A stretch of DNA of 61,906 nucleotides, counting the filler, from Sphacelaria rigidula (Eukaryota): the NCBI GenBank assembly GCA_964200075.2. It is 9 parts of 9 records of this genome, joined end to end, with 100 filler letters (N's around TTAATTAATTAA, not from the genome) between each part and the next. Parts side by side here need not be neighbours in the genome. Positions count along the whole stretch, not along the records: positions 55,118 to 61,906 come from CAXNAA020018074.1; 8 more parts are not named here. One strand, written 5' to 3'. The notes beneath the pieces are model-generated. The model had not been told where the DNA came from. It did no database searches and was given only the letters and a program-made list of their open reading frames with translations. Of this stretch, positions 577-61,906 are shown one piece after another (the first letter of the stretch is position 1; each line of letters opens with the position of its first letter). The position numbers were made by a program, and so were the translations under genes.

Positions 577-2533
577 CTGCCTACTGAAGTGTCGCACTCT
601 GTTTAATGGTTGCAAGCGATCTTCAACAGCAATACATGATAGGTGCTGCCATGACGCGGCCGTCTGCTTGGTAGAGCTGTAACAACTGAAGGCGGAAAGT
701 TGAGGGTTCGCATGTGGGCAAATTTGTGCCCCCCCCCCCCCCGGCAGAAGTACCTGGTTTCCGTCATCAAAAACGTGGGGACGGGGGTAGCGAGAAACAG
801 GTTTAACGGAAGCCGACGACGCCGGTGCGGGGGTGCTGACTCCATCCGCGATACCAAAATGTAAGGCTTGACCGGGGGCACTCATGGTCTTGCGTGCCGT
901 AGTCGTAAGACAATTGATCTTCCATGGCTACAAAGCGGAGACGAAGCATCCCAGGTTTTCGCCAGACCATGCTCGCAATCGCCAAGCGCGAAGCGCGGAG
1001 ATGTGTATGAAGCGTGAGCTTCATCCTGAGCAAATTGCTCGATCCAAAGAGTTCTATCTATGTTGCATACAGATGACAGTCTTCAATGAGTTGCATCATT
1101 TTCTGGCATCGTCACTTCCAGAGAGAGTGCCTCACCGTTTAAACACTACGTAGTACGATCAGCCCCTTTGCGTGGAGTTCAGGTTCTCCACCCCACACAA
1201 TTTGATCTCACTCGGCCACCGTCATGGTTACCGCAAAAACGCAAGCGAAAAATAAACGGTGACCCGGTTGCCTACCTTACGTAGTGGGCGGCATATTTTA
1301 CAGCGTCAATGCCGACCGACATACTCATTCATGAATAGATAGTTGGTGCTGTTTTGTTTTTCCCCTGATCGTTAAGCGTAGACATTGCAACCGCGTAACG
1401 TTAGACATTTCATGACCGGTTTGCGTGGACAAAGTACAGCGCCTTTGTTTGGATTATGACTGACCATCAACGTGGACTTAACCCCTTGGTATCGGTATGC
1501 GGTGCTCACGTCGTGTCCCGAAAAAATCGCCAGTCTTTCTGACCGACCACGGGCAGGGCACCTTGACATGGGATCCACCCGCTGTCTTGTTAATAGTGTC
1601 GTCGTGATTATTTTGCGTTGGCATTATGTCTTCAATCTGAGCGTTTTGGTTTGGTGAGTGCGGCGTGAAGCGTATTTTTGACGTCGGTTGTCGCGGTGCA
1701 TCGCCAACAGCGCGTCAGATGTATTGTCATATCTTCGAAAATAATACCTGCTATCGGGCTCCCACTTCACAAGGTCCATGTGTCTGAGCAAACACGCTGA
1801 TTATATTGGATGCTAGATGTTACGGCAGAAAAATCCTCTGGATATGGACATTGGAAATGCGGGGCTCAAGCTATGTTCCGAAACCCGACAACCTTGTTGA
1901 CCGACGGGCTTGGAAGATTTGTCCGTTGCAGTTTCTTCCAAGTAGCGAGTGCGACAAGAAAAAATATCGGAGCGACAAACGGGAACGATTAATGAAAGAA
2001 AAATATTTACAATGCCAACTGCACACGCATGCAACAATAGCACCACCAAAATAAACATCGGTACAGCATATTGACAAAGGTTGGTGTTGTGTTTTTTATG
2101 GGGGAACATCGTTAATAGGAACAAAAAGAGGATGAAGACAAAAATTGAAGAAAAAACGTTCAAACGATAACTTCAGTCTTGCGCGTTCACTCAACATTTT
2201 CTTTCGCAAATTTGAGAGAAAACCAACGGAAGGACATAAGTAATTATATGCATTGGGCACACCGTACGAAAGCTGGCAACTGTGGCTTTCCAACGCTGGT
2301 AGTTTCGTCCTCAGGCGTATCGTACAGCATGCAAGAGGTCAGGATGGTCATGACAGCACTGTTTTCCGTACGGGGGGAGAAACGCCGTCCCAACATCTAT
2401 ATAGAGGCATGCAAACGTCATATTTGATGAAAACCTTGGAATATGAGCGAGGGAGCTCTCGAAGCCGTTTTTCAGATTTTGAAGATGCGCGCAAGATATG
2501 ATAATAACATCTTGTTTGAAATGGTGCAACCAC

Positions 2534-2665: not shown

Positions 2666-5600
2666 CTTGACTCATGAAACGTTAACCCAGGTGCAGAGGT
2701 TGGCCGGCGGTGGAGAAGGGGAAAGGGACGGGCGGGGGGGGGGGTTGATACGTTGATATATTCACTCTCAGACGCCGTTCCGGCGCCTGACATAAGAATC
2801 AGATTGAGTTTGGGGTTCCAAGGGTAACAGAGTTCGGTTCGTCAAGTGCGGTGGGATTTCAGACGTAGCAAGTTTGAACGCACGAGTGCCAGCCTGATTT
2901 TTGCACCTAAATACCGTCAAGCCTTAGGTTTGAATCGTTGTAAGTCCGAACCCACCTTCACATGTTTTTCCGAGGAGAAGAAAAGATCGTTCAGAGTGGT
3001 CCTGACCCTATCACGACGGGTATGCGTAAAACTGCTGCCGGTCGCGGAGGTGTCCTGTGGTTCTCGTGAGTGTGTGTGTTGGAGCGTACTCATTTGTTGC
3101 TTGCCTTAGTTGTTTGACCATTGACCACGCATCCCTTTCGAGGCGGACCATTGTGTGTATGTGTTCGGGGGGGGGGAGGGGGAGGGTGTCCTCTGTTTGT
3201 TTCAGAGCGTCATTTTTTGTTCCGTCTCCAATTTATTTTCGTGAAGGAGTTTTTTTTCATCAGGTTTGGGAAGCATCGCACAGCGCACATGCACTCTTAT
3301 GTCCTCGTCCGATCAACATGATGGCGTTTGGCATAGCACAGAGCGCCGAGCGTTTCGGAAACCGCACTCCCTCGAAGACATACATTTTGGGACACAGGAT
3401 GGGCAAGACAAAGGGACAAAGGCTGGGTGAAGGGGCCAAACCTGTCAGTGAGAGGCAAGAACTTTCCCCGAAACGCTGACTTGATGGGTATAGCAGTGGG
3501 GGAGAGAAAATAGCCATCGGTTGGCCCAAGTGTTTGAAAACGTACGCCTTCATTTGAATTCGTACAATCGTATAGGGCAAACAGCTCATGCCTGGCGCCT
3601 ACAGACGTGCAAGTCAACTTCCCGGTTATCGTCCTATTGGCAGCGAATTGGCGCACAATGCTTCACCTGTGCAGTCATTTCTACCGGCAGCTTGTGAGGG
3701 TAGGTTAATACATCACTTGGCATAAATGTACCAAACTAATGGTTTTTACTGTCGGTGCCTCTGTGCTGTACTTGACTCGGGGGCTCGTGCCCTCTGACCT
3801 AGATGGGTTTTGGAGAACCACAAACTTTCGCGCCAACTACTCTCACGTCGTGATCAAACAACTGAAAACAAAACATCTCGTAATTCCGCACTAGTCTGAA
3901 CGCATATACAATGATGCTGATAAAAATGGTGTTCATCTCCACTCGATACTCCAACAAGATGCAGTACTGTGGTTGTTCGGCGCTATTTATTGCACCATGA
4001 CATATGACCATGGCTGAATTCCTAGCAGATCAGCTAGTGTGTGGCAATCATTCAATCAATCAACCAATGATCGATGCTGTAATATGAGAAAGATATACGT
4101 GAAAAAACATTTCTTTGCTTCATAGATGTACTTTACTTTTCCATGGTTAACTTTGAGAACCTTCATGGTATCCACCGATTCCAAGACTTGAAATACCATC
4201 ATTACCCTCCATCCCGACCAATTTCCAGGGGATATTTCAGCCGACCCAAACGAATAGCTCCGACGAAAATTGCTGTTAGCACACGCGATTTGTCTGCAAT
4301 GATAATGGTATTAATACATTCTCGATGAGATATTGAAATAAAAATATTAAAAAAAGCACACATACGCACTACGCTATCCTGCACCTACTGTATACTATTT
4401 ACGCCACTGCACACTGCACTGCGCTATATACGCTACTGCGCACTGCACTGTGTGTGTTGTGTGTGTGCTGTTGTCCCATCTATTCTGCACTGCACTTTAC
4501 TTTCCGTGAAATCATGCTATACATTATCTGAAGCATATGAGCGTACATGCTGCACTTTATACTATAATTAAGGAAGGTATGCTATACTGTGCCCCGACAT
4601 AGAAAGATCGCACACTATGCATGTGCCTATACCACAACTGCTTGCTGATCCCGATAGACCGCATCATTCATCCGATGCTAATGTCGAAACAACAGTTTTT
4701 CATGAGTACATTTGGACACGGAACTCTTCGCCACAAGCTGCTGGCAACAAGGACTGCATACCGCTGTCTAGTTCAAGACGTAAATACACGGCCGATAGGA
4801 TGACGGCGATACTCGGACGTTAACTCGCAATACTTCACGAGACAATCGTGAACTTTCTCGGGTATAATCTTGTCTAACTCGGAAATATGCCGCGGAAGCC
4901 CCCTCCTCCCCCCTCGGGAGGGGGAAGAAACTATCGCGAAGAAATAGCCATTGAGCGCATCGAGATGATGGATTGTTTTTCAGAGACAAGGGCTTGGAAG
5001 TTATCATGAAGAGCGCAAGTAGCTGGTTCCTGAAATCAGGTTTCTTGGGGATTATTTTAAATAGTGCAATCAAAGGCTGGTTTCAGGAACCAGGTATTCG
5101 AATTTGCGTCGAAGAATGCAAATACCGTTACCCTCAGAAACCAGATCTAAACCCCTCACATACATGCGAACTGTGACGGTTTTCTACTGACAAGTCAGCG
5201 CTGACTGGTCAGTAGTCTAGTTGGTTGTCTCTTAAACCGTCACAGAACCCTGCCTCGGTCCCCATTCCACTTTTCCGGGCAGGGGCTATCGCAGCATTAT
5301 TGCTTGATACACACAGACCCATCGATCTCACATACCCGAATGGAAGGCCTCCATGGACGCAGGTTTCCATGACTGCTTGCTCTGCGTACAGTAGTGACCC
5401 TTCTCTACATAAAATGAATTAGATGCTACCGACTGCGTCATATGGACTGAAGAGTTGGCAATCTCGAACCAGTCTTGCGGAACAAACTGTGCTCAATCGC
5501 ACAAGTTTGCTTCAGTGGGTAGGGGAGGGCCCAACAATGTCGAATGGTGCAACTGCAGTGTTGTAGATTGGAATGAAGCCGGTTCGATTTCCCGTTGTTG

Positions 5601-6891: not shown

Positions 6892-8320
6892 AGGGATGCG
6901 AGGTCAACGGTCTGATGACTGTGGCATGCATGATCATGAGTACCCCCATGCGAGGTCAATGGTTTGATGACTATGGCGTGCATGATCATGAGTACACCCC
7001 CCCCCTCCCCCCTCCCCCTCCCGGTACAGTATACAGTACATGCCTTACGCTTTGGCATGTATCGCGGATTGGACCAGCACTCCAGCACCCTTTCGTCGAT
7101 GTTGGGGTTGACGTGACCCTCGATACATTTTGTTTTTTTGAAGATATCCTCTTCTTTTTTTCCGCAGTCAAGTCACGACACGTGAGTGACTATTCTCGTT
7201 TTTTTGCTGGTGCTCCAGGGCGCGCGATCATTAAATTGGGTCTCGTACAGTGTAACTTCTTTTTCAACCGAGCAATTTTTTCTCCATTCGTTATATGAGC
7301 TGGGCCGGCTATCAGTAATATTTGAACGAAGAGTGGAGATGCGATTGGCAATTCGAAGATCAGGCGCTGTAATTTTGATTCGACATATTTATCATAATCA
7401 ATCCGCGCAATCCTGTGAGTGGAGTAAAGGAAACAAAACAAAAACAGGAAGTTAGAGCGAGTTGAAGGTACAGCGCAGTTTCAAGTAGTACTTCTCGGTG
7501 ATATACAGCAGTTGGCTCGGAGGTTCTCTCCCATAATGGAGCTTATGACGAGCTTGATGCCATATTCCAGCACTACCAGTGTGCTCTTACCTGGGCATGT
7601 CGGGTGTGCGTGTGCCTATGCGGCGCAACGCTCTATCGTAATCCCACCGCGTATTGTGAAACGAAACCTCTCCAGCCATGTTGTCACGCGACGGCAAGAG
7701 ATGTACCCGGTAGTCAATGCAGTACAATAACATCATCGCCAAAACTGCGCCAATCAAGCAGCGGCGGTGCCGTGTGTTACCAGGTTAGTCTGCAATTCAC
7801 AGCGATATGCTCAAGTCGCGCTGATTGGGTAAACTTGAGAAGTTGTAGTGCGGAGAGAGAATGTGGGATTTACTGCCGGTCCAGATCGTGGGAAATAGGA
7901 AATGCAACGCTCCGGGATACATGAAGAGTCAATTGCATATTCTATTTTCCGTACAAAGTGGAAGAGATTCGCTTCGTTAGGAACCGTCCTCATGCATTCA
8001 TTTACCCGAAGGAGAGGATGATGGGTTTGAAAGCAACCTGCACGTTGCACGTATTTATCACTTTATGCCTGTCTTGAATGTCGATTTTACGTAGAATCGT
8101 CTCGCTCGCCTCGCCTCGCCTCGCCTCGCCTTCGCGTGCTCTCATTTTTTTCCTTCTTGTATTTCGTTTCGTTTTTACTTGCTTTTCCTCTTCATATATA
8201 TATATATATATTTTTTTTTTCTTCGTTTTTCGATCTTTGTTTTCCTTTTATCTTCCCCCCCCCCCCCCTTTTTTTCTCATTTCTGTTCTCTCTTTTTTTT
8301 CTCTTGTTCTTGTTACACAG

Positions 8321-8467: not shown

Positions 8468-9900
8468 GTGCGTTACTTTGTTCAACGGGGTCCCCGAGTT
8501 TATTTTTCCCACGCTATTATTGGTCCGGCTTGTTTACATTGATCGGGTGCGTCCATTTTTTACCACGGCTGGATCCCCGGAGGGTCAGTCAATCGAAGAG
8601 GGTAGGGAACGAGGGGGGGGGCAGGGAGGGGGGAGGGTGTACTCATGATCATGCATGCCGTTGTCATAAGGCCATTGATCGCGCATCCTTTTCGAGGCGG
8701 AGCAATTTAGAGGGGGGGGTGGGAGGGAGGGGGGGTATTCATGATCCTGCGTGCCATAGTCATCTGAGCATTGACCTCCCATCCCTACAAAGCTGGGACG
8801 GAGCACGCCGGGCTTTCGCGGGACCAGGCTCGCAATTAATAACCAAGCGCGATTCGTGGTGATGTGTTGGGCGTGTTGCATGAAGGGTCATTATCGGTCC
8901 GAAGCATACTGATGATGTGGTACTGGGCGCATGAACTATTTTTTGTTCAGAAGTTTCTTTGTTCTCGTGACTACTCTTCGATAGAACTCGAAAGTGCTAG
9001 CGTGATTTTGGTCAAATAAACAGATTGTTTCCCCCGCCAGTGCCCAAGTGAGTGTTGGTTGATTGTATCGAGCGATACGAGTGGATACCCCGTTTACCAG
9101 GAGGGTGTTATTGACAGTAAAACACAGTTTTTCGGCTTTAGTGCAATGGGTAGGTGAAATAAAAATAAAAACTGTCTGCTTCTTCACAAATATGATTAGG
9201 ACAGGCTCGATCGACCGAAAATACTGATAAGTCAGAACGTGGGCTGAGACGTGTCAGGACCCCCGATGACAGGCCAGCCCGTAAGTCACTCACTCTATTG
9301 AGTATAGTTTTTTTTCTTCTTGGAATGTGGAGCGGATACAAGTGTCTTGAGATCCCCAATGTGATGAGCGGTGGCAAGCGAAAGAGCCTAAGGAAATCGC
9401 AAATTACGAAGAAATTACGACATGAAGAGTTCAGGCGCCCAGTACTGTATTACACTTGAATGTCAGTCTCCAATGAGTTACTTCTGGAAGGGAGCGGGGG
9501 GAGTAGGCGTACTCATTCGTTGCTTGCCGTAGTCGTTTGAGCATTGAATTCGCACCCCTTTCGAGATGGCTAAGAGAGCGGAGTGGGGAGGGGGGTCGAC
9601 GGTCAGCCCTAAGGTCCTCGTGCGGGGCACCAAATGGGTACAAAAAGCAACATCCATTCCTATCGCTGGACGGCTTTTTTGCAACTATCTGCGCAGAAGT
9701 TTAACCTTCTACAATGGGCATGAATTGAACATGTCGAGAACGATATATTTTGTACTGATGAATGTATCTGAAAATATGTTGTTTTTTCTGCATATTTTTA
9801 CTCTTTTTTGCCGGTGCTCACTACGCATGGATCAACAATGGCAGCATCATGCTACGACCTGGTTACGGCCGGAGTGGACGCTTTTTATTATTTTTTTCCC

Positions 9901-11241: not shown

Positions 11242-11965
11242 GTGAACAAATAGGAACAAATCATGTGGAGTATGGCATACATGGAGCATAGCAGGCATGG
11301 AAAATAACGCACGCACGCATGCACGCACGCATGCACGCAAACATACATCGATTTGATTGTCTCACAGTCGCTGATTCGCTCATGTACGAATCCAGACTTT
11401 GTCGCGAAAGATTTGTATCCAATATGTCACGCAGGTATATTGAGTGTGGCGTACAGAAAATAGATGTAATCATTTCACAATTTAATTTTCTTGAAATTGA
11501 TGATTGGAAAATCGTACACCTGCAATATAATTAATTAATTCATTAACTGATTGGTTTTTGAGATTGGTTAGATGATTGGATGGTCGATTGAATTTTATTT
11601 TGGACGAGGGAAAGACGATACAACTAATTAATTATTATATATATTAATTAATTAGTTAATCAATTGGTTGTATGAGCGGAATTTAATGGTTGGAGTTTAT
11701 TGATTTTTTTTTTTGGACAAGGGAAATACAATATTTCCAGCGTGTTCGTTGGTCAAGCTACGCATGAGAATGCCAAGGTGGCGCGTTAGGAATATCCTGT
11801 TGGCCGTATTTGTCCACGTTGTCCATCTCTTAGCGGTAACAATGGTCCGCATAACCTACTCCGTATATTTTTCATGTTTGTGTGTTCGTGTGTTTGTTTG
11901 TTGTTTGTTTCAGGTCGAATTTTGTTTTGTTTCGTTTCTTCTTGAATCCCCTCTGCCCATACCGC

Positions 11966-13255
11966 CCGCAGAAACAAATAGAGACGGCGCTAGAATACAC
12001 TAGGAAATGGAGAGTGACAGCGAACGTCAACAAATGCGCGGTACTCGTATGTAATGAAGATAGAAAAAAGCCGGCCGAATTTCAAATGGAAGTGGCGAGA
12101 AGAGAGACTACCGACCGTGGGCCAATAAACATACCTTTGCGTAGAGATCTAAAATAACTGTTCTTGGGATGCACGCATAAATAAGGCAATAGAACAGGGC
12201 AAGGCACAGATAGGCAGGGTGGACGGGATACTCAGAGACTCGCACCCAGACACTGGGATTAAGAGATGTATCCTGATGAACGTGATCGTACCAAAGCTGG
12301 AATATGCAGGAGAAGTATGGGGGGGTAACAGGAAGCCGATGGAGAACTTTGAAACAGTACAGATGACAGCAGCGACGAAAATACTTCGGTGCTTGAAAAC
12401 GACGAGTGATACAGCTTCGAGAGCAGAGTTGGGAATGTATTCACTTGAAACAAACAGAGACATGAGATAATTGAGATGGCCGTATATCGTCAAGAACATG
12501 CAGAGGAAGAGATTGCCAGCCATAGTTGATAGGGCTATATGGAAGAAAATTACGAAAGCGCAGGCTGGAATAAGGTGGGATAGAGAAGTCGAGAAAGTGT
12601 GAAGGGATATAGGAGGAAATAGGCGACGGCGCGGGGTACAAGACAAAAGTAAGGGACATGATAGAAATAAGGGGAAAAAGAGCGCTTAGACGCAAAGTAG
12701 AGGAGGAAGAACACCTGAAGATATACGGGGGGTTGAGAGAAAGGGGATAGGAATGAGAGCATATCTGCATGGCCCACTGGACGCGGCGAACTATGATCTT
12801 CGGTGGGGGACCTGGACCTACCAGAAAGAAGAAATAGATATACGAATAGTCGAGAGGAGGAGGAAGTAGATGTACAGAATTGCCCCTGTGGCAAAGCAAT
12901 AGAGAGCAGAAGTCATATAGTGGCAGAATGCAAACTACACAAGGAGGAACGGGACGTGCTAGAGGGGGAAATGCGGGACATGAACGAAGGTGGCATTAAA
13001 TCGTTTAATGCATTAGACAGTATGGGGAGGAAACGATGCTTATACTAGGAGATTGATGATGGTCACAGACGGCGGAACAGGACGGGGATAAGATATGTAA
13101 AGATTCTTGTGTAGTGTATGGAAGAAGCGTGATGAGCACCGGAATGTTGGAGGTATCTCCATTGCGGGTAGGTAGGAACGGTGCTGCGTCTCGAAAGAAA
13201 TGCGTGGTCAATGGTCACACGACTAAGGCAAGCAACGAATGAGTACGCCCCCCCC
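11966..13255 (+). mobile_element. 5'-truncated decayed non-LTR retrotransposon (LINE family A), 3' end of the RT ORF and 3' UTR
   Basis: Frameshifted fragments KWRVTANVNKCAVL (late RT), IVPKLEYAGEVW, RAELG, GDLDLPERR and CPCGKAIESRSHIVAEC (CCHC knuckle). Ends ...AATGAGTACGCCCCCCCC. Confidence 0.9.
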
Positions 13256-22766: not shown

Positions 22767-23849
22767 ACCACAGGAGGGCTCTATTGAGCACTTTACGGCG
22801 GAGCACTCGAGAGGTATCCCCTATACAGGGCAAGGAAGGAGTCGAAGTTCACACACGTCTTGTTGGCCGCAGAAATCCGCTCCGTCAGATCCGCTCCATG
22901 ATCAGGAGCTTACCAACTGTAGTTCAGAAGTTTGTTCCAAGCAAGGAGAGAAAGTCGGTCATTTAGCAGGGCGATACATACGGTGTGAGCTTTTGCTCAC
23001 TTGTTCGGTGCAATCAAGAGAGGGGAGCACATTTACATGTCCTCAGGTCGTCGACAGAAGCACCATCAGTACGGTTGGTCACAGTGAGCATCACCGCAGG
23101 TGCTAGAAAGTTCGGAAGCAGGCCGCATCTTGAGCTCAAGAACGGCTTTCCCGCCCACCGCCGGCAACAAATGGACCATACGTAAGAGTAGTCAATTTGA
23201 AACGTTGAAGAAAAGGTCAGAGAGTTCGAAGAGGACAGATTTCCTACCGGTTACCCTGCTGCTCGAGAAAGGGGTGAAACAGGGTTCAAACCGTGGAAAC
23301 TGCAGGTATCTACGCGGGAGCAATGCAACGATAGGGGTTGCACTTTTTGTTTGTGGGTCTCGTTTTAGTAGGAGCCCAGCTATATGGGGTTCACTTGGCA
23401 ACCCAAATCTCCGTGGACAGGACATGGAGATGCACACAGAGGCCTCTTTGTGAATCGGCATCATTTTAAGTCTTTTTTATTCCCAGAATGATCCGTGCAA
23501 CACCCCGAGTAACATTTTCGCTCAAAAAATGCAACCTTACCGTAGCATCACTCCGGGGTGAATTTCAATGGACTTGCAAGATATCGCAAAAATGTGATCG
23601 TCAGAATTGAGTGTTGGGTTAGTCTTATCAACAGGGTGGGTCGATTCCGGTTTTACCTGTTTATGAGGGTTGTCTTACCTTCATGTTTTCCCGAAAAAAG
23701 CGAGTGAGAGAGGGAACATAACGCATACGCGATGTGTCTACAGTTGCGTGTGAGGATGTATAGGGTCCCCGGTTCACCATGGGAAGATGACGCGAGGAGA
23801 CTTTCGTGCCGCCGTTCAGTACAAATCTGCTCTCGTGCAGTGTAGAGCC

Positions 23850-25715: not shown

Positions 25716-26646
25716 GCCGTGGTTCGACAGGGGATTTGCTGGTGAAATACATTTATTATTTTCCCCCCTTGTAAGCACCATGCATGAAGACGATATACTC
25801 TACAGGGCACTTGCTGAAGAAGTCCACCCTATGTGCTGCCTTCACCGTCGCCTGCAAGGACCTTACTCTCGAACATATCTTCGCATAGCCCTCGAACCGT
25901 AGCCACGAAAAAAACAACTGCGAGGTGCATTCAAAGAGCCTGCGCCATAACGGATTCCGCTCCGGCTTCGATCAATAGCGGGCTATTACGTGCGACTGCC
26001 ACCGCATAATCGCACGGCAAGGACGCACGGTAGACCTTTTGTCACCGACCCCGTAAAAAAAAACACGAAAAATCACGGCAAGCACGGGACGATGCAGTCG
26101 AACGATGGAACGAGTGTTGGCTCGTCTTCAAATCCTGCACCACCAGTGTTATACATGACGAGGATTCGGACATGGTCGGTGTCTCCATCGCTGCAAAAGC
26201 GAAACGACGCTGGAGCTCCCCTGCAATGACTCCTTCAGAGACGCAACTGCTTTTGTTCTCTTCCCCTCGGCGCAATCCTTCCTCCACTCGCATCACGTGT
26301 CAAATACGTTAGGTGCAGTCTCCGGTGCGATATGGTGCTGATGTCCCCTTCACAGAAACCTCAACCCCGCGACCACTTCCGATCCGTAGTTGTAAAAACA
26401 GTATCTGTGGGTGGAGAAAAGCGCGCTTTGGCAGTATGACGTATCACGAGGAAGGTGTCACGGAAGACGTCTGCACTTTTGAGTGGATCCGCATCATTCC
26501 CGCGACATTATTTGCCTCTCCGTGGCGTAGCTGATGCTCCTTTGTATAGAAGCACAGATAAAGTCCTGGGCAAATGTTTTCGTGGTAGTTCTTAAGTAGA
26601 TAGCCTTCACGATAGCCCCCCCCCACACACACACAAACGAGATAGA

Positions 26647-27263
26647 TATAAATAGGGGGGAAAGGAGCGCTCAGTCGCAAAGTAGAAGAGGAAGAACACC
26701 TGGAGATATACGGGTGGTTGAGAGAAGGGATCGGAACGAAAGCATGTTTGCATGGCCGCATAGACGCTGCGAAAAATATGAAATTGAGATTCCGGGTGGG
26801 GGACCTGCACCTGCCAGAAAGAAGGGAGATGTATACCAGTCGTCGAAAGGAGGAGGAAATAGATGCACAGAACTATTTATGTGGCAAAGGAAAAGAGAGC
26901 AGAAATCATATAGTGGCAGAATGTGAACTATACAAGGAGGAACGGGACATGCTAGAGGGGGAAATGCGGGACGTGAATGAAGGTGGCATGAAATCGTTTG
27001 ATGGATTAGACAGTAGGGAGAAAACGATGGCTGTACTAGAAGATAGATGGTGGCCAAAGACGGCGAAACAGGACGGGGATAAGATATAAAAAAAATTATG
27101 TCATGTATGGAAGAAACGTAGTGAGCTAAGGAAGAAACGTGATGATCGCCGTAATGTTGGAGGTGTCTCTATTAGAAGTAGGAACGGCGCTCCGTCTCGA
27201 AAGGGATGCGTGGTCAATGGTCACACGACCAAGGCAAGCAAAAAATGAGTATGCCCCCCCCCC
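26647..27263 (+). mobile_element. LINE family A, 5'-truncated copy
   Basis: High identity to 12660-13255 (KLRFRVGDLHLPERR, ESRNHIVAEC). Ends AATGAGTATGCCCCCCCCCC. Confidence 0.9.
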
Positions 27264-33396: not shown

Positions 33397-33920
33397 CGCG
33401 TCGGAAGTCTTTCTGCGTCTTTGGTGCGTATCATCAGTAAAAAAATCCGACGACGTCGGAACCCCACATTACCGAGATTCCACGGTTTGGGGTACAATTC
33501 GACTTCATGGAAATCGTTCTCAAATCCGTTTTTCCTGTTAGGTTCCCGGGTTGCTGGCGGTCACTGCAATGCGAAGCATGTGGAGATTAGGCAGATATTG
33601 AGTTGGGGATTCGCATCTTGAAATTGAGAACAGTATTGAGACCGCTAATTGATCGAGGTACCCTTTCATTCTATCAAGAATTTCATGTTGCATAACATCT
33701 GTGAGTCAACGTTCGTTCAGTGGCATCAAGCTAAAATACGGAGGTTTGTTCACTGAGTAGCAGGCGGGATATTATGCGGGACACTGGGAAACTATTGGAG
33801 TTGTTAAGCAGCCTTCGAGAATGTTGCGGTGTGAACGTCGTCCTGGGAAGATATCATTTACTTGGAAGGCGGGGGAGAATTGTTTTGGGCACGTAGCCCC
33901 CCCCCCCCTCCCCCCTCCAA

Positions 33921-34350
33921 TTGCATTGTCAATATAGCGTAAAGAACATGCAGATAAAGAGATTGCCAGCTATAGTTAATAAGGCTGTATGGAAGAAAAC
34001 TACGAAAGGGCGTGCTATAAGGTGGGATACAGAAGCCGAGAAAATATGGAAGGAGCTAGGCGGAAACCAAGAAGAAATTCTGTCCATACATGAAGACGCG
34101 GGGTGCAAAGCAATAGTGAGAGATATGATCGAAATAAGGGGAAAAGGAGTGCTCAGACGCAAAGTAGACGAGGAAGAACACCCGGAAATATACGGGTGGT
34201 TGGGAAAAGGGATACGGATGGAAGTATATTTCCATGTCCCAATGGACGCTACGAAAAGTATGAAACTGCGATTTCGGGTGGGGGACCTGGACCTGCCAGA
34301 AAGAAGAAAGAGATATAAGAGTCGTCGAAAGGAGGAGGAAATAGATGGAC
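33921..34350 (+). mobile_element. LINE family A fragment cut by the contig end
   Basis: KRLPAIVNKAVWKK...MKLRFRVGDLDLPERR is homologous to 12470-12870. Immediately preceded by a C tract (33897-33918). Confidence 0.88.
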
Positions 34351-40032: not shown

Positions 40033-40410
40033 GGGAGGGGGGGGGAGGGGGGGGGGTTACTCATTCGTTGCTTGCCTTGGTCGTGAACACCCTGGACAAA
40101 ATATTTCAGTGTCAAGAAATCTACTGCGCACAGTGTGGAATCCTTTGTCTATTGCAATAGACCCAACAGTAGATACTCTATGCCGCAGACTTTTTGACAA
40201 TGGAATCTACTGTCATTGTCCAGGGTGTGTAGTCTTTTGACCATTGACCACGCATCCCTTTCGAGACGGAGCACCGTTTCTACTCCTAATAGAGATACCT
40301 CCAACATTCCGGTGCTCATTACGTTTTTTCCGTACATTACTCGAAAACTTTTTACATATCTTATCCCCGTCCTGTTCCGCCGTCTGCGGCCACGATCTAT
40401 CTCCTAGTAA
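40033..40410 (-). mobile_element. LINE family A 3' fragment interrupted by a MITE; shorter A tails at 3081-3146(-), 9496-9569(-), 41147-41230(-), 60031-60110(-)
   Basis: Reverse complement of 27045-27263, flanked by G tracts on both sides. Confidence 0.85.
40086..40229. mobile_element. ~145-bp MITE with (TTC)CACACCCTGGACAA inverted termini; copies at 49077-49226, 53621-53760 and 61831-61906 (cut by the window end)
   Basis: ACACCCTGGACAA ... TTGTCCAGGGTGT termini; four dispersed copies with related interiors. Confidence 0.75.
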
Positions 40411-41419
40411 AGCCGCGGGGGGGGGAAGGGAGAAAAAAGCAAACAGTAAGAAAAACGAACAAGAAAAAAAACGAAAGAAAGAGGGAAGGGAAGGAAGAGA
40501 GAGATCATGAGAAAAATCCAAGGCTAAGAAATGTAGTGCTTGCCCGGGAAAAAAGAACGGTGAGCTTCTACCGCATGGCTTTAGGTGAGGAGACTGTACA
40601 CAAACCAAAACAAGACAAGGAAAGAAAAAAAAGTTGCGGATTAGCTATCTCTATCTATTTGTGTTGCAAGCAGGTTTTCATCCGACGTTCCAACCGCATG
40701 GTTCTTTATCCCTTCCGGGAATAAACCACCAGTAGCGCAGGGGCCTCACCGCGCCCCGGTGGTGTGAAGTAAAAACGATCTAACTGCCATCATTAAGGTG
40801 CAGAGAGCGTGGGTTCGATTCCTCCGATGCGTTCGGTTCTTTCTTCGAAGTATCTGATTTCCACCGTCGAAAGCGTGAGTGAGTACGTACCTGAGTAAAC
40901 AAAAAGTAGTTGACTGAGTTCGTTTGACAAGAGGTGACGCGGTGCGGAAGTGTTGGTCATGATCCAATCCGCGAGGGCAAAAATGCAAGGCGTGCACCGG
41001 GGAGGGATAGATGGGTTGATCCTTCTGAGACCAGTAGACCACGGACTCGTCCCGAAGGAGAAGAGTTCAAAATGTGACGAGAGAAAAAGAAGGATGTTTT
41101 TTTCATCTCAAGTACGCCCATCACTATGACCGCGGCTAGATCCCTTGGGGGGAGGGGGGGGGGGCGTACTCATTTGTTGCTTGTCTTAGTGGTTGAACCA
41201 AGAACCACGCAGTCCTTTCGACACGGAGCATATGGAACANNNNNNNNNNNNNNNNNNNNNNNNNNNNNNNNNNNNNNNNNNNNTTAATTAATTAANNNNN
41301 NNNNNNNNNNNNNNNNNNNNNNNNNNNNNNNNNNNNNNNTCCCCCCCGCGGGCGCGGGCGGGGGGGGGGGGGGGTGGGGGGGGGGGGGGGGGGGGGGGTG
41401 GGGGGGGGGGGGGTTCTGT

Positions 41420-44540: not shown

Positions 44541-45619
44541 TGCGGCTCCCAACAACTCCGCCCCAGCAGCAGATCTGCACATGCCAACACGCGTCACACC
44601 CTTCTCCATGATGTCCTATTCTGATATAGCCGGGTTTTGTCCAGGAAATCTCAACCCGAACCTTGATATTGGAGTCATCCTACGATGGGGGGGGGGGGGG
44701 GGGGCACTTGATTGAACGAAAAAATAGGCTCAAAAGTGTGTCAGACGACCTGCCACACTCGCGGTGTGCTTGTATCTGGTTCAAAACGGTGTCAATCGGT
44801 ATATCCGAGCGTTTTATATCTATAACAAGCTCGTTCGAGCAACCGTTGCTCCTTTCAAAGACGAAGTTGGCTTAAAATTTCGTGCAAGAAGTGGCCCAAA
44901 ATACCCCCCCCTCCCTATCGTAGGATGACTCATTGACGCCCGCATAATGGTCTGTTTTGTCTCGAGTTTTGAGATGGCGCAAAATATATCTTGATTCCGG
45001 ACCACATGCGGAACGTGGTATCCTTCATGATACACATGTAAAGAGTCGTCCCGTTCGTCGCTGTGTGAGCGAATCAACAACTCTCGTCTTGCGCAATACT
45101 TCCCTACTGGTCTAGTGAATCTGTTGTGTGGTTGGTGTTTGCTTTCCCGGCCATTTTTAAAATGCCCAACTCCAATTATCGGTCTCTCCTTTATCACGAT
45201 TCTTTCTAGAGCTTGAAGTCCGAATACGACGAGGGACAAAGTAGCGGCATACATATGCATAACCTTTCTACGATCAGCTTCCGCGGTGGCATGCCGACGT
45301 TCCATTCAGTGCCTTGCCGCCGATGTGTGTGTCTTGCATTTCCGTCTTTCATCAGTGTCATGGGCTTACGGCGCTGTATATGGCAAGCACAGGCTCACTA
45401 GGCAAGGCAAGTAGACAGTCGAGAGACCGTACAGCCAAGCCACAAGGTATTGCTCAGTTTATTCTCATACTATGCACCAGTCCCACACAAGACGTGTTCA
45501 GATAAACCAGTATCTCACGCGCAATGTCTACCTTCCTCTTTATACTCTGATCCCGACCTTCTAGTATCCACTCAATCAATCCAATCTTACGCTCAGTATA
45601 TCAGTCTCACCGTGTTAGA

Positions 45620-49875: not shown

Positions 49876-50594
49876 GTGAGTTGGTTCACATCGCATCAAT
49901 TTACCTGCAGTTTTTTCCCCAATGTCAAGTATGATTCCGCGCCGTAAATGACGGCGGACAAGACCGGTACGTACTTCACCACCCCCCGTGGATGACATCC
50001 CTGGGGGATGACGTTCCTTGTATTTCTTGTTTCCATGCTGGGTTCTGTTGTGCTGTATAGGGCGAGGTGGTACGTCACACCTTCCGCCTTTCCCCCAACT
50101 AGTACCGGGCGGTCGTATACAAGGTTACCCACGTCACTCACATATTTTGAAAATTTTGGAAAGGTGCGCGACGGGTCCGTCAGAAAACAAGAAATGGTTG
50201 CTCTTCTCTTGCTTTTCTGTTTTTTTTTTTTCTTTCTTCTCGTGGGTAGCGTGTTACTGGGAAGTACAGCACATGTTTCTGTTTGTGTGTGCGTGCGTGT
50301 ACCAAGCTTCCAGTCCGAGTGAATTTTTTTCAAGTTCCTCCGACTACGATCCCCCCCGAAGATAATTAGCACGCTTCGGATCGAACAATCTTAGCGGGAT
50401 GCAGCTCACCCTCATGCGACTCGCCGAACACACCACGGCGCTTCGCGCTTGGTGATCACGAGCCTGTTCCGGCGAAAACTTGGCGTGCTCCGTCCCGGTT
50501 TTGTGATGGATACAAGGTCGATGGTCTTGTGTCTACGGCATCAAAGATAATGAATGCACTCCCTCCCCGTAGAAAATGGAGTAACTCATTCAAG

Positions 50595-50810
50595 GCTGTC
50601 ATCACTGTGCAAGATAATCAGTACTCTTTAGGGCGAACAATCTTAGCAGGATGCAGCTCACCCCTCATGCGACTCGTCGAACCCTTCGCGCTTGGTGACC
50701 GGTTGCGAACCTGGTCCGGCGACAACTCGGCGTGCTTTGTCCTGGCTTTGTAGAGATGCGAAGTCAATGGTCTTATGACTACGGCATGCGATGTCATGAG
50801 TACCCCCCCG
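50595..50810 (+). mobile_element. Retroelement family B 3' end; other copies at 874-995(-), 5764-5811(-), 6892-6947(+), 6948-7022(+), 8638-8702(-, A/B chimera), 8735-8857(-), 27343-27461(+), 50378-50568(+), 58075-58116(-)
   Basis: Dispersed copies are variably 5'-truncated and share the 3' terminus GGTCAATGGTCTxATGACTAxGGCATGCATGATCATGAGTAC(A)CCCC. Confidence 0.8.
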
Positions 50811-52314
50811 TCCCCCGTCCCCCGTCCCCCGTCCCCCGTCCCGTGAGTATCCCTTTGGAAAACAGTCGTCGCTGTTCCCACATGTAGTTGAGACAGAGGA
50901 TATTTCAGTATCATTATTTTGCGTGTTTCGGCCGTGAGGTCCTTGTACTGAATCGTCGGTAATCGCCGGTCCGAAGGATATGACGAGGTTTGCCACCCCA
51001 TAAAAAAATGCTCGTGGTTCCCATGTAAACCTACGTAGGCATATCAACCACGACCGCAGATCCTAAAATAGAAATATATTCCGATTTGGCCAGTCTGAGT
51101 TTTGACCTCCCAAGGAATCGGCGGTTCTCGCCGATTTGTCGTCACACAGTAGTGCAGTTATGGGGAGTTAGGCGTGCATATTCTCATGTTTTAGCGTGTT
51201 GGACGCACCGGGCATGCACTACGATGGATAACACCCCTCCCCCACCATGACGATATATTGTATTGTCCCAATGACTCAATTTGTTCACAAAAGGAAGAGG
51301 TATCATGTCGTGCCAAAATTTTTCCCGTATAGTAGATGGGGGTTCGAAATAGTCGCCGATCGATTGATTCCGTTGGGCGGCAGCCGCTCAAATTACTTGA
51401 AGCGTTCAGCATGGACACTTACGGTGCTATTTTATCTATAATCGAATCGTGACGCAAGGGCCCTTCTCAACGAAAGGAGAAGAACGAGGATGATTATGAC
51501 TAAGGGCCCACGCGTGGTGACCATTTTACGCTCCTTGCCTCATCATCGGATTGTTCCTCCGTTCTCACCGAAGAAGAAAAAACATTTTTGATTTTTTTTT
51601 TTTCTATGAAAATGAGAATGAAAATGCAAAAGGGAACGCGACTTTAGATTTGTTGCCATGCTGCTAGCGATGAGTGGTGCTGTGGTAGGGGGTGGCCCCA
51701 AAATGTGCCAAATGTTGTCGTTTAGGCGTATGATGCATCATACCATAGTAACGCATAGTATAATAATCACAAGGCTCTTCCGACATGGTGCAAGACAAAG
51801 CATTATACGCACATAAAACTGTCGAAATTCAACCCACGGATGTGACTGAGAGTAGGCATTTGTGCTGTGAGTGACAGAATAGAGGACGCTTATCCATGGT
51901 ACAGGCACATTCATGCCAGCCTCGCAACGTTTCTCCGCCGTAGTAGTTGAACATGCACTCATGTATCCTATACCCCGAAAACGACCCGCCACCGTCACCC
52001 CTATTTTTGTGGTGATTTTGTTTTTTCTTGTAAGGCCGCTTCTTATGCGAAACAAATATACAAATCCGGAGCACTGCCTTCATGAAGCTTCTGCGTCGTT
52101 TCACGCCCTGAAAGAGAGCTAGGCGGATGTTGAAGCCTTGGAATGCCTTGCTGTACTTGGTGAGACAGTCTCCGAAATACTTATTTTTGCCATGAGAAGC
52201 GGCCGAAGTCATCGATAAACATTCGAGTTTCTGCTCATGTCCGAAGATCCCGTAACCCCCTCCCCCCCTTATGTTGGATCCCCCCTTGCGCGCGATGGTG
52301 TGATGTGGCTGCAG

Positions 52315-52395: not shown

Positions 52396-53969
52396 GTTAG
52401 AATGATGGCGCAGAACGTATCCACCTGTAGTTGTATTTGGGGGGTTGTTTCTACGAATGCGTAAACTATTATACGCTTTGGGCCGTCCCATGGGGTCCCG
52501 AAAAATGAAGTCAAACCTCTGTTCCAGAAAGTTTGGGGCTGGGTTTTCAGATATTTTTCTGAAACCGTCTTCGATGGGGTTTTGTTCTCGGAGATATGTT
52601 ATTCGAGATCGGGAGTGTTTCGTTCCCAGAGATATGCTTTTCCCGTCCATCTCGTCAACAAAAGTAGGCTTTTTTCGGAGAGATTAAGTTTTGTCGGCGA
52701 AAGGTTTTATCAAAAACGCCTCCCATCGAGCGCGCTGCAACAAGATGTGCAGACAGTACACAGATGAGAGCCACCGCACCCCGGTCGTGTAATGGTCATG
52801 ATCCAGCTAACACTATCAGGCAGAAGAGAAGGCGGGTTCGATGCCCGCGATATGCGATTTTTTTTTTTAGAAGAATCTGATTTCTGCAGTTGGAATTGTG
52901 AGGCTGTGAGCAGCCGAGAAGAGTTTGAGTTTGCTCGGCGGGAGTTCACGCGGTGCGGGGGTCATGATCCAATTTGCGAGACCAAAATGTAAGGTGTGTA
53001 CCGGGGGAGAGATGGGATAATTCCTTGAGACCATCGACTCGTCCCCAGGAAGGGGAAGGGTTGGAAGTGTGACGGGGAAGTAAGGAAGGGGAAAATGGAG
53101 CACAGCCCGCACGTAGCACGGTACAGATCGAGCACGCGGCAAACTGTACGATGAGGCAACAGAAACATGTATAGCACCAGTACCGCTGTGCATGAGGACA
53201 GACGGTACAAGCGTGCATGCACGAATGGCAGCAGCATACTATACGGCACATTCAAAAGTGCGCGAAGACAGACCATTGTGCTAATACACACTTCGTACAA
53301 GCACGAGTTACGGTAGGGCAGTACAAACAACACCCGTCAAGGATGCGGGTCAGGGCACCCCTGTGCGATAACGCCGGACTGTGCGTTCGCTCCGATACCT
53401 TTTGCTTCTTTCGCGCACCCCTGTGCGTTTGCTCCGCACTTTGCCCTGACCCCGAACCGTGCCTATAATCGCATCCTTACGGTACATAACTGTAGATAAT
53501 GAGCAGTACGGTGGCCGCTGCTTCGTTCTCAAATTGATGATGGCAGATATCATGCGGACGGGTGCTCCCACTCTTCGTCTAAGGCTCGCCAACGGTTCTC
53601 GAGTCATCTTGTGAAATAAGCACACCCTGGACAATGGATTACATAGTCAGAAAATGTACTGGGTACAGTACATAATCTATTGTCTGTTGCAAAAACGCAA
53701 TCGTCAATACTGTACGCAGTACACTTTATGCCAAGACAATCTATTGTGCAGTGTGTGGAAATAAGAGTATTCGCGAGGTCTCTCTTCTCTCTCTCTCTCT
53801 CCCTTACGAGATGAGAGGGGAAATAATATATATGATTTCTTCAAAGGGGTCCGGCCTCCAATGGTGAGACATAGCAATCGCGCGTAGCACCTGTACGGGG
53901 CACAAAAAAACCACGAAAGGGGAGGCAGGCGGGCGGGCAAGAAGACACGCGAGGCGAATGTAAATAAAT

Positions 53970-57600: not shown

Positions 57601-58653
57601 CCTGGTGGTATGACTACTGCATCCTGCGCAGCGGCGGCAACTTCAGCCCGAAAAAGTGTTCGAGAAAATGCCGGCCGCCCACATCAAGACGCACGATGCG
57701 CCGGCGTCGTTTGACATCCAACCTATCCTACGACTTTCTATGGGGAAAAACCCGACAGAAAATCGCGCCCTTTACCCCTCCAGCGCAGCCACTACGGGCA
57801 CATCTGCACATATCGCACGGAGATGTCAAGCGCATAATGTCACCGACAACCAATCCTGCCATGAGACCACATTACATCCTGCGTTGTACATGATCTCCAT
57901 CCATCCGCGATACAACCCCTGGCGGCCTCGCAGTCTGGGTTCGCCGCTGTTGGTGCACCTGAGGCGAAATATAGCGCACGCGGTGATAAATATGTGCAGA
58001 GAGGATCAGCGAGCCAGAGTCATGTTTCTTTCGACCCCGGGGAGGGAGGAAGAGAGGAGGGGAGGGGCGGGGGGTGTACTCATGATCATGCATGCGATAG
58101 TCATAAGACCAACCATGGAGGGGAGGGGCGGGGGGGGGGGGCTATCTCACGATCGCACCGCAAAGGGGGGGGCGGGGCCGGGCCGCATGACTGATCGGCG
58201 TAANNNNNNNNNNGTTCTCTCTCTTTATACTGCGCGCATCGTGCGGCACTGTCGTTAGCGGCCTATCTCACGATCGCACCGCAAATGGGACGGCGTCGCC
58301 GCGCAGCATGACTGATCGGCATAAGTCTGATGCAGCATGTGCGCGAAAGTCCCACGAGGTCTGGTTTCCCGTAGCCCACTCATCGACAGCCAGATTCCAA
58401 TACCATACACGACAGCCACACCGCGCTCCCCTCATCACACAAAATCACGGATTGCAACATCAAAATTATTGCAACCCCACCGCAGCCCCTTCCATCCAAC
58501 TTTATATCATACGGAAAAAGAATTACCCGGGATTGCGGTCGATACACGGACCTGGGGATCATAATAAACGAGGGGGGATAGAGGCGCGTGACTACTGACG
58601 CGAACCTGCTTCGCCGAAGCTCTTGGTATCATACCTGTGCGTTGACCACTCTC

Positions 58654-59685: not shown

Positions 59686-61906
59686 GATCTGTACCTGCGC
59701 ATTCGGCGGCGTCTTCTGAAGAATATCCCGCTGCCACTAGTCGGATATCTGCGAGGCTTCCGGGCGCCGCCTGCTGTCGGCGTTGATGACGGCGGCGATG
59801 AAAAAATGGAGGGAGATAGGTCACGGCGATGGCGGCGAGATAATGGAGTGTGCGGTGCAGTATTCATGGTGCGGTTCTCGCATGTGACCGTCCCGTTCCG
59901 AACACCACTCCCACCGGGAGCATGGCCTGAGGTCACCGTTATGTTGCGTATATACTTTGTCGGAGCGTTTTACCGACACCGTGTACTACCGCCGTGGAGC
60001 CAACCATCCATATTTTGCGTCGATATGTTGGAGGGGGGGGGTAGCATACTCATTTGTTGTTTGCCTTAGTCGTTCGACCATTGACCACGCATCCCTTTCG
60101 AGACGGAGCATGATATGTTAGTAGGGGGTGGGGAATGAGGGGTCAGCAAGAGTTTTGGCCAGCGATGGGAGCTCACGGAGTCGGTAAACCGCCGTGAATG
60201 AGTACCTGTGCGATGGAGGAACATGATGCCAACACAACAAGTTATCGTAGGTGTTGGGGGAAAGCACTGTTTTTGGGCGGGAGCCTCATTTTTGCGGTCA
60301 ACGTCATCTCTACAATCGGCTGTTGTTAAGGTGGACGTCGGGACACGCTGAGATAATGCCCCACCCGTTTAACCTGCGTTCCCATCACGAACACAGCCGA
60401 CATGAAGACACAGGCTTCACACATCAGGTGCCTGACCAATGTGGTCTAGCGCCAGGGCACCGGTGGTTGCGTCGCCCGCTGCATGCGTGCTTAGGGTTAG
60501 GCCGACATTACAGCTAGCAGCAAACATGGTACACCTCTACAGACCGCACCGTACGGGCGCTGCAAATAACACGAGCGGATCGGGGTGCAACGTGTGTTGC
60601 AGCCCGACACCGACGGTGTCGGCGTGCGTGGTCGCCCTGTGGGTCAATTAATGTGCCCGGAAGGTGTCCATGTCCAGTACATTGTACAGCATTGCAACCA
60701 AGTATACACGCTACGTGACCCTTCGGTGTATACTGACACCCGCAGACAGTATTCAACGGTCCAGTAAGTGCAGCACCACAATGATGGGGAACTGGGCCCA
60801 CAGATAGGGGATGGGGGAAACATTTATGAGTTGCAAAGTTTCTCGACCAATCAGAGTCTTCAAATACACCATAATGCGGTGACCTTTCTTCAATCAGATG
60901 AGAGATATTAGTAGCAATAAAGTCAAAAACCAGCTTTGATTGGCCGACACATTGCGCCGCTGCGGCACAGACCGCTGCTACCGGCAATAAACGAGGATAC
61001 AGCAGCTCCGTGCTGACTCAGTTTGTTCGTCACAACATGCACCCACCCGCCCGGCGTGTCTTCCCCGATCACAGCACCCGACTATAGCTGAAGTACCAGA
61101 GGAGACACAACAGACAGCTGTACAGCCGTCACGTGAAGATTGTTTCAACCTTTCTTGTTTCAACAGCACCTTGATCCCACCCTAATTCTGTGCAGCCCGA
61201 AACACGGCATGCAGCAGTACGACTGCTCAGGCACTCTCAAGTGCACATCGCACCGTGATCATCGTAACGTGTTTAGATGCCCAACAGCACAGCGAGAACT
61301 ACAGCATAGAAATGATGGGTTTGTGGAGTGCTTTATTCCTTTGACTCGAGACGAAACAGCCAACACACCGTGAGCGTTTCAACGGTGTGTAAAGAGCATT
61401 GCGTGCCGACAAGAATATTTTTCATACGTAAAGACGAACGGAATGTCAATGTAAAGCAACTCAGGCACTCCCAGCGGAGATCGAACCGTCTCCACAAAGG
61501 CCTGAAACGCCACAGCACAGCGACATCTACAGCACACAAGGTAGAGCATGAGTGTGTTTTTGCTACAGCACAGTGGTACAGGACATGTCCCATTCGATAG
61601 TTCTTTCCCTGATCTCCGGTGGGTCCTTGATTTTTGCCCAGTGGCGATTTTCAAACGCTCGGCCATAATCGCGAAGATTTTGAAATTCACTTTGAGTTAC
61701 TGTACCCCTATCTGTGGGAGGTGAGCCCAATTTTTGTACTGCAAATACACTATAAAAAAATAACCTACATCAATTACAGTACAGTAAATTCAGAAGGGTG
61801 CAGCGTTGGGATGGCAGTGTTTATATAGGGATTCCACACCCTGGACAATAGAAGGCATCTATTGATGTAGCAATAGAATTCACCGTAATAGACGAGTATA
61901 TTCTCT

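Follow-up and report, generated by a model that had tools for sequence, protein, structure and literature searches.

C-rich 3′ ends and C-tract junctions of RTE-X-like LINE fragments and their non-coding partners in the brown alga Sphacelaria rigidula

The window, by which we mean the whole stretch of 61,906 nt of Sphacelaria rigidula DNA that was analysed, is made up of nine stretches of 6,789-6,791 nt separated by spacers of the form N44-TTAATTAATTAA-N44, and two N10 scaffold gaps are found within it, at 36448 and 58204. The stretches are almost equal in length and descend in size, as entire contigs of a fragmented, size-sorted assembly might. A Pfam search of its 117 ORFs of at least 110 aa matched host genes only (EsV-1-7, Peptidase_M24 and Paf1), the EsV-1-7 cysteine-rich motif being present in two ORFs at 21436-22820, and gave no match to a reverse transcriptase or endonuclease domain. 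Among named proteins, those closest to the two EsV-1-7 ORFs belong to Sphacelaria rigidula (72% identity), Ectocarpus and Pylaiella. Over the whole window, neither Rfam at gathering score nor ARAGORN returned a match or a tRNA. The window also harbours two related 3′ tails, referred to here as families A and B, which both end in ATGAGTAY (Table 1). A profile trained on nine window tails, with matches kept at E < 1e-4, yielded 17 matches on six contigs. These represent 16 copies, since one interrupted copy was matched as two halves; the copy at 40058-40413 is split by a 142-nt insertion (40088-40229) with 12-nt inverted ends. An earlier note on this DNA had counted about 16 copies on seven contigs. 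The number of copies was reproduced, whereas tails are confined to six contigs and the seventh carries only a family A body fragment from which the 3′ end is missing.

When a C-rich 3′ end is defined as at least 8 C in 10 nt no more than 25 nt past the tail, the tail leads into such a tract in 12 of the 16 window copies, while the remaining four 3′ ends (3086, 6943, 880 and 5775) are followed by merely 2-5 C. Poly(A) was found after the tail in none of the 16 window copies, and no A run there was longer than four. The statement that every intact end is C-rich and never poly(A) is accordingly correct in its second half and slightly overstated in its first. G followed by C8-13 is also the ending of every one of the five relatives found in other public assemblies (L020, L037, L057, L108 and L120). 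The base after GTAY is fixed by family, being G in family A and A or none in family B, and beyond that base the C run is variable in length and may be interrupted by sequences such as GCT, GCTA or GCCTA. A metagenome scan with a 17-nt pattern gave 119 loci, four of which contained a real tail; the other 115 were matches of 17-21 nt only and were excluded. A 30-nt pattern had one match among genome contigs and none among viral contigs. Public contigs from three studies showed a hundreds-fold pile-up on both tail-bearing bins of contig 9, a depth that is not equivalent to a copy number, and this shows that the tail repeat is very abundant. Past 60110, the public contigs continue either into LINE body or into G-rich sequence.

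Runs of G or C in short-read assemblies may be poly-G artefacts of two-colour Illumina chemistry, and the distribution of the longest runs in the window lends this some colour: 8 of the 12 G/C runs of at least 12 nt have a contig end or scaffold gap no more than 75 nt away, in keeping with the earlier remark that contigs break at such tracts, and the substitutions at one contig end are biased towards G. The runs at element junctions, however, are internal and lie between stretches of unique sequence, the tail with its C run recurs in five contigs of other public assemblies, and G runs precede 60047 in public contigs from three separate studies. Further, (C)n ends are recorded in a curated Ectocarpus repeat library (PMC12477816). 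We consider an origin of the runs in sequencing chemistry to be extremely improbable.

Table 1. Positions of family A and family B copies and of the direct repeats at 58056-58135, numbered along the window
Feature	Position	Strand	Remarks
Family A, LINE fragment	11957..13246	+	Residues 926-1360 of P0002 (tblastn), then G + C8
Family A, fragment	26645..27252	+	P0002 residues 1174-1358; C9 20 nt upstream (26616-26624); G + C10 after the tail
Family A, body fragment	33918..34350	+	P0002 residues 1096-1237; C12TC6 directly upstream; 3′ end lost at contig end
Family A, fragment	40058..40413	-	C9 upstream (40417-40425), C10TC9 downstream
Family A, 65-nt tail-only	60046..60110	-	Duplication 60112-60132 / 60022-60041, 18/21, unique part AACATATC included
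Family A, 65-nt tail-only	3086..3150	-	Duplication 3152-3165 / 3067-3080, 12/14
Family A, about 62 nt	9509..9569	-	Duplication 9572-9591 / 9488-9507, 15/20
Tail-only, 66 nt, A-like start and B-like end	8639..8704	-	Duplication 8710-8734 / 8611-8633, 22/25
Long family B element	8735..9486 (limits approximate)	-	Head AGAAGTAACTCATTGG right after the C tract of 9509; tail 8735-8810
Two family B tail fragments in tandem	6892..6943 (cut by contig start) and 6948..6995	+	CCCC joint; C tract 6994-7023 after
Family A, 65-nt tail-only	41166..41230	-	G + C11 after; 5′ flank only 9 nt to contig end
Short family B (about 236 nt)	50568..50803	+	Head TAGAAAATGGAGTAACTCATTC; (CCCCCGT)5 after
Degenerate family B	880..1127	-	Then only GCCCCC
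19-nt direct repeat GGAGGGGAGGGGCGGGGGG, 3′ side (target-site duplication)	58056..58074	-	Exact, 19/19, against 58117-58135
5′-truncated family B tail	58075..58116	-	58076-58111 aligns to the profile, nhmmer E = 3.7e-6
19-nt repeat, 5′ side	58117..58135	-	Runs on into G12; 62 nt from the N10 gap at 58204

The identity of family A becomes apparent from its relatives. In the metagenome relatives L020 and L057, a frame of 346 aa enters the tail and stops at a TGA inside ATGAGTAC, 4 nt before the end of GTAC. The family A tail is therefore the end of a single EN-RT ORF, made up of its final 24 codons and the stop, and only GTAC and a G are left between that stop and the C run. A protein search identified full-length relatives of 1,360 aa (P0002) and 1,328 aa (P0003), each with a single ORF. 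P0002 has an Exo_endo_phos domain at residues 170-414 and an RVT_1 domain at 740-989, the same order is found in P0003, and RVT_1 was matched in the full-length relatives at E = 1e-31. The reverse transcriptase of the relatives matched the human L1 ORF2p and R2 structures at E = 1e-20 (phmmer). The full-length relatives have the C-terminal peptide ...NGQMTKASNK in common. Two of the relatives are named Ectocarpus proteins, among them P0004, which ends in ...ASNK. Identity between the Ectocarpus LINE proteins and the metagenome relative is 47-71%.

The window copies are degraded, with amino-acid identities of 35-67% to P0002 (tblastn) and of 30-65% to the other four relatives. They cover residues 926-1360, 1174-1358, 1096-1237 and 1291-1355 of P0002 (tblastn); the window thus holds LINE protein only from residue 926 on, with no complete reverse transcriptase, and the AP-endonuclease is seen in the relatives only. 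The 5′ boundaries of the family A copies were placed at or before 11957, at 26645, 33918 and 40413, and at the start of the 65-nt copies, corresponding to truncation depths, counted from the 3′ end, of at least 1,290, 608, about 800, about 205 and 65 nt. Residue ranges of this kind are the 5′-truncation series expected of a LINE. On the strength of these sequence comparisons, family A is classified as an APE-type non-LTR retrotransposon (LINE), the full-length picture of which derives from its relatives.

Family B has a non-coding body of its own and shares with family A only the last ~65 nt, beginning at about GTGCTCCGTC. From a reading of the sequences, the family A reading frame through ATGAGTAC is not kept in family B. 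The family possesses a defined head, TAGAAAATGGAGTAACTCATTC, and comes in two sizes, a unit of about 236 nt and a longer element of about 750 nt (8735-9486). Tandem arrangements were found at 50300-50803, where the short copy starting at 50568 stands behind an older family B copy ending at 50556, and at 6892-6995. Family B behaves as a non-autonomous partner that would borrow the last ~65 nt of family A.

The C tracts are not restricted to the 3′ side of the elements. The 5′ junctions were set by aligning the copies to longer references, and nine were definable. In eight of these nine, a strand-specific C tract was present no more than 35 nt upstream, as compared to 2.2% of random window positions; the lone exception, the copy at 6948, is situated behind the CCCC of the preceding tail. 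The paired G-rich flanks listed in the earlier note (8611/8710, 40033/40417, 9496/9584 and 60031/60124) were all recovered as strand-specific C tracts. Duplications of about 14-25 nt that extend from the C tract into unique sequence were found at 3086, 9509, 60046, 8639, 27245, 40058 and 58076. The flanks are ordered as C tract, unique bases and element, and past the tail the C tract is followed by the same unique bases. The recurring flank is CC-AACACAYACAC at 3086, a C-rich stretch plus AACATATC at 60046, CCGCTCYCTT at 9509 and a C-rich match of 25 nt at 8639.

Since C-rich flanks easily align with one another, the flank pairs belonging to the same copy were tested against swapped pairs by permutation. 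Own pairs scored higher both with plain scoring (mean 12.75 versus 10.5, p = 0.028, n = 8 pairs) and with composition-weighted scoring (mean 15.9 versus 11.6, p = 0.007, n = 8, on low-complexity flanks). Six of the eight own pairs outrank nearly all swapped pairs, and the pairs at 40058 and 6988 match no better than swapped ones. The order of C tract, unique bases and element on the 5′ side fits a target tract that existed before the insertion and does not fit C-tailing, and the same order is a prediction of an L1-like mechanism in which the first nick is made inside the homopolymer. These results support insertion into existing C tracts accompanied by target-site duplication, the presence of the tract beforehand being judged from the duplications alone.

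Could the C residues instead have been added without a template at both ends during integration, with no choice of target? Some reverse transcriptases are capable of untemplated base addition, and a C run is almost lacking in 4 of the 16 copies. Such tailing is nevertheless most improbable, because 3-20 unique bases stand between the C tract of the 5′ flank and the element, and these bases recur past the 3′ C tract (3086, 60046, 9509 and 27245). In L057, moreover, the post-tail C run gives way to a 15-nt motif that forms the ends of a different, inverted-repeat element, and this element has a C run of its own elsewhere in the window. This unrelated element is a 260-bp unit at 44672-44931 with 28-nt inverted ends consisting of the 15-nt motif and a G/C run. 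The occurrence of the motif past the post-tail C run of L057 suggests that the LINE was inserted into a C run belonging to the unrelated element, and the C runs are not all derived from LINEs.

Insertion at existing C tracts is also reflected in the arrangement of copies in trains, formed by 9509, 8735-9486 and 8639, by 6892 and 6948, and by the family B pair at 50300-50803. In the train of 9509, the long family B element and 8639, each copy starts at the C tract that ends the previous one, and copy 8639 is inserted in the C tract ending its neighbouring element.

The locus at 58056-58135 had been put forward as an example of a target-site duplication, a 19-nt direct repeat around a family B tail of about 42 nt, and the repeat proved to be exact at both sites, enclosing a tail fragment of 36-42 nt. 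Read on the minus strand, the intervening 42 nt are ATGGT-TGGTCTTATGACTATCGCATGCATGATCATGAGTAC-A. The aligned part ends in ATGAGTAC followed by A; this A after GTAC is position 58075, and the 5′ junction has five additional bases (58112-58116). Slippage or a local tandem duplication within a low-complexity, G-rich stretch, or a mis-assembly by the scaffold gap, could produce such a pattern without any insertion. Units of tail and C tract do occur in tandem (6892/6948 and 8639/8735), the locus is only 62 nt away from the N10 gap, and the segment 58056-58141 is bridged by none of the public contigs listed (unitigs of about 120-420 nt). The 62 nt before the gap (58142-58203) are a near-duplicate of 58260-58324, and in one 20-nt block of this near-duplicate six of the seven differences are changes to G, a pattern in 58142-58203 that resembles two-colour base calls of low quality or the collapse of an allele. 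No second tail is present upstream of the 5′ copy of the repeat, however, the 19-nt repeat is an exact and specific pattern, and the same arrangement is seen in seven other copies within clean sequence. We judge a duplication or assembly error unlikely to explain the locus. Among the eight loci this one is nevertheless the least certain, and the general claim of insertion at C tracts is independent of it. One public contig (X2) joins 58021 to 58383, with just 24 nt on one side.

As far as anatomy is concerned, the earlier proposal of a C-tract-seeking LINE/SINE system is borne out by the LINE identity, the C-run 3′ ends, the truncation, the C tracts at the junctions and the flank duplications. 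Most probably, the repeats are the 3′ ends of a brown-algal APE-type LINE (family A) and of its non-coding partners (family B), inserted by target-primed reverse transcription at C/G tracts. The endonuclease would nick the G-rich strand at a position that we infer to lie inside or at the edge of the C/G tract, and the freed 3′ end, which ends in G, would then prime on the 3′ end of the RNA. Reverse transcription may frequently stop early, very often exactly 65 nt in, and a second nick 14-25 nt downstream would generate a duplication that starts in the C tract and reaches into unique DNA. Because a new copy would itself end in a C tract, later copies could land there and build up head-to-tail trains. 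The RNA might carry an oligo(C) end able to pair with the nicked G strand; an identical anatomy would result from the specificity of the endonuclease by itself.

Reverse transcription by R2 starts at a fixed internal site. The same LINE system may operate through the specificity of its endonuclease alone, with an RNA devoid of oligo(C), reverse transcription from a fixed internal site after GUAC(G) and a post-tail C run that consists wholly of target DNA. As would be expected of such a system, the base following GTAY does not change within a family and everything beyond it varies in length and interruptions, and at copy 3086 the 3′ side has GCT and then CC alone, the long C tract being left on the 5′ side only (3165-3188). 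The constant base and variable C runs, however, fit the annealing version just as well, and RTE-type tails are generally copied from RNA. Published views can be aligned with either side, in that endonuclease specificity is thought to be the major factor for microsatellite-targeting LINEs (PMC3812793, in the part consulted here), while the Ectocarpus curators count (C)n within the 3′ end of the element (PMC12477816, library entries). An endonuclease-only system is possible, though we would not expect it to be the case. Target-primed reverse transcription at C/G tracts is common to this version and to the one with annealing.

A further feature of these insertions is the recurrent length of 65 nt. 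Of the nine 5′ ends that could be defined, four to five coincide at one base, TGCTCCG, at a distance of 65 nt from the end of GTAC (3150, 60110, 8704 and 41230, with 9569 off by 3 nt), and public contigs branch at the same 65-nt point. The 65-nt copies are a discrete tail-only class and not the outcome of random truncation. The consensus fold of 13 tails had an energy of -7 kcal/mol and contained no compensatory or covarying pairs, and hence no supported structure. Two ribozyme candidates were considered and dropped: a hammerhead in the tail (GAAA and one CUGAUGA), the motif of which is not conserved, with CUGAUGA present in one copy only, and an HDV-like ribozyme where the 65-nt module begins, for which no P1 partner was found on reading the sequence.

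Homopolymers of at least 14 nt in the window are skewed towards G/C, with ten such runs against none of A/T. The suggestion that the elements seed or lengthen G tracts is only compatible with this. Somewhat speculatively, the system might be self-feeding, in that every insertion would copy or lengthen a C tract and thereby make the next target, which would drive the excess of long G/C homopolymers in brown-algal genomes, the trains and the fragmentation of short-read assemblies; the 65-nt copies would then derive by retrocopying from an RNA core that is processed or protected and that is the minimal module recognised by the reverse transcriptase. We advance this combination as a tentative idea that is rather less probable than its opposite. 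If true, the 65-nt copies would be about the smallest mobile retroposon units known.

C-tailed LINEs associated with C tracts and belonging to the RTE-X group are already recorded for Ectocarpus in the library entries of a published annotation (PMC12477816). The entry for RTEX-1_Ec32 reads 'single EN-RT ORF; (C)n 3'' and gives the TSD as 'C-rich' (PMC12477816, Supplementary Material 3), and RTEX-2_Ec32 is listed as '(C)n termini/TSD' (PMC12477816). RTEX-N1_Ec32, of 607 bp, has a 60-bp 3′ end in common and 'can be present in tandem', and RTEX-N2_Ec32 is a second partner element, of 188 bp (PMC12477816). RTE-X is the most abundant LINE group in Ectocarpus, with 16,418 copies (PMC12477816, Table 1), and the other autonomous LINEs listed differ in their tails, RTE (RTE-1/2) having '(CAA)n 3'' and CRE an RT-EN order with a (CA)n tail (PMC12477816). 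Most likely, family A is the counterpart of RTEX-1/2 and family B that of RTEX-N1/N2, as matched by the curated descriptions and by the Ectocarpus relatives. The two sets have in common a single EN-RT ORF, a (C)n 3′ end, C-rich TSDs and tandem-prone partners sharing about 60 bp. They differ in the host, Sphacelaria rigidula as opposed to Ectocarpus, and in the size of the partners, about 236 and 750 nt here versus 188 and 607 bp there. Since all testable features match RTE-X, the elements are provisionally filed as RTE-X members in another brown alga. As far as its main text and library entries go, the Ectocarpus paper analyses neither targeting nor the stop codon within the terminal motif nor a class of 65-nt copies, and in the main text the term 'c-rich' has no occurrence and C tails are not discussed (PMC12477816). 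Literature on poly-C non-LTR retrotransposons and on microsatellite-targeting RTE-X, judged by title, had nothing on C-tailed LINEs beyond that paper.

Waldo, Mino, Kibi, Koshi and Dong are LINEs of other clades, the R1 and Tx1 groups. According to the part of the source consulted, these APE LINEs target microsatellites, namely (ACAY)n for Waldo, (AC)n for Mino, (TC)n for Kibi, (TTC)n for Koshi and (TAA)n for Dong (PMC3812793), and the present elements resemble them in being APE-type, in inserting into simple repeats and in having repeat-bracketed, stackable copies. Unlike the Waldo-type targets described there, the target here is mononucleotide C/G and looks loose, with any C-rich tract and no strict repeat unit. 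In L1 and Alu, the poly(A) end of the RNA pairs with the T-rich nicked strand (PMC3812793, same part), and the likeness to the present elements extends to a 3′ homopolymer that matches the start of the duplication, 5′ truncation, duplications of variable length and non-autonomous partners. The differences are that the homopolymer is C and not A, that a 3′ UTR is essentially lacking, and that the partners share a specific tail of ~65 nt and not a homopolymer only. Partners with such a specific common tail we take to be of the 'stringent' type. RTE-clade LINEs are characterised by very short 3′ UTRs and simple-repeat tails. The present elements agree with them in the single EN-RT ORF, the minimal 3′ UTR, the short-repeat tail and the SINE-like partners with a common 3′ end, and depart from them in their (C)n tail repeat and C-rich duplications.

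C-tailed, C-tract-seeking LINEs, putatively of the RTE-X kind, populate a second, distant brown alga as well as marine metagenome contigs, and their presence beyond Ectocarpus implies that the trait is probably old within the brown algae. Thousands of near-identical tails next to long G/C homopolymers also provide a reason why short-read assemblies shatter. A homopolymer of C is impossible to obtain by polyadenylation, which makes these elements a clean natural case for how the 3′ end of a LINE RNA is defined. The same system poses the question of whether the target is set by the pairing of primer and template or by the specificity of the endonuclease.

The stop codon of the LINE open reading frame of family A is a TGA that lies within the terminal motif ATGAGTAC, both in L020 and L057, two metagenome-contig relatives of this LINE, and in the tails in the window. 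The LINE 3' UTR thus amounts to about 5 nt ahead of the C run, and what appears as a conserved LINE "tail" is therefore coding sequence. In the non-coding partner elements of family B the same frame continues through ATGAGTAC without stopping. Among the nine definable 5' ends of tail copies, four to five share one starting base in the element (TGCTCCG), 65 nt upstream of where GTAC ends, and the public contigs aligned to the window also branch at 60110-60114. These 65-nt tail-only copies are a discrete class and not the outcome of random truncation.

Coordinates of the features discussed (window positions unless a contig is named)
Feature	Position	Strand
LINE stop codon TGA, L020	694-696	minus
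LINE stop codon TGA, L057	119-121	minus
Shared 5' end of tail copies	3150, 60110, 8704, 41230 (and 9569)	
A-rich or (CAAAA)-like stretch with C18-23 run, contig ends	1-72, 20673-20756, 54925-55017	
260-bp unit with 28-nt inverted ends	44672-44931	
142-nt insertion with 12-nt inverted ends	40088-40229	
Pair of overlapping frames carrying EsV-1-7 cysteine-rich motifs in tandem	21436-22820	minus

The sequence that follows a tail is not always a plain C run. After the family B tail ending at 50803 the run is replaced by (CCCCCGT)5 at 50804-50838, which may reflect reiterated copying at the junction or may be a microsatellite. At three contig ends a C18-23 run is immediately adjoined by an A-rich or (CAAAA)-like stretch, with an 89% match between 36-72 and 20714-20750, and a further family of elements may have its tails here, adjoining C tracts. 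Near-duplicate segments lie on either side of the N10 scaffold gap (58142-58203 and 58260-58324), and in one 20-nt block the left-hand segment has changed to G at six of the seven positions that differ, which points to either poor sequence quality at the contig end or the collapse of an allele.

The 260-bp unit, which has GAGTCATCCTACGAT followed by a G run at one end and a C run followed by ATCGTAGGATGACTC at the other, is bordered on either side by ATTG and looks like a small inverted-repeat transposon with G/C runs of its own at the ends. Related end motifs were seen after the C run at 20758 and, likewise after the C run, in the 3' flank of the L057 LINE copy. The 142-nt insertion, with inverted ends CACCCTGGACAA and TTGTCCAGGGTG, interrupts a family A tail and resembles 53622-53747 (72%).

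The EsV-1-7 frames, with internal repeats at 22021-22642, have their best named match in Sphacelaria rigidula and represent a gene family of brown-alga and phaeovirus type.
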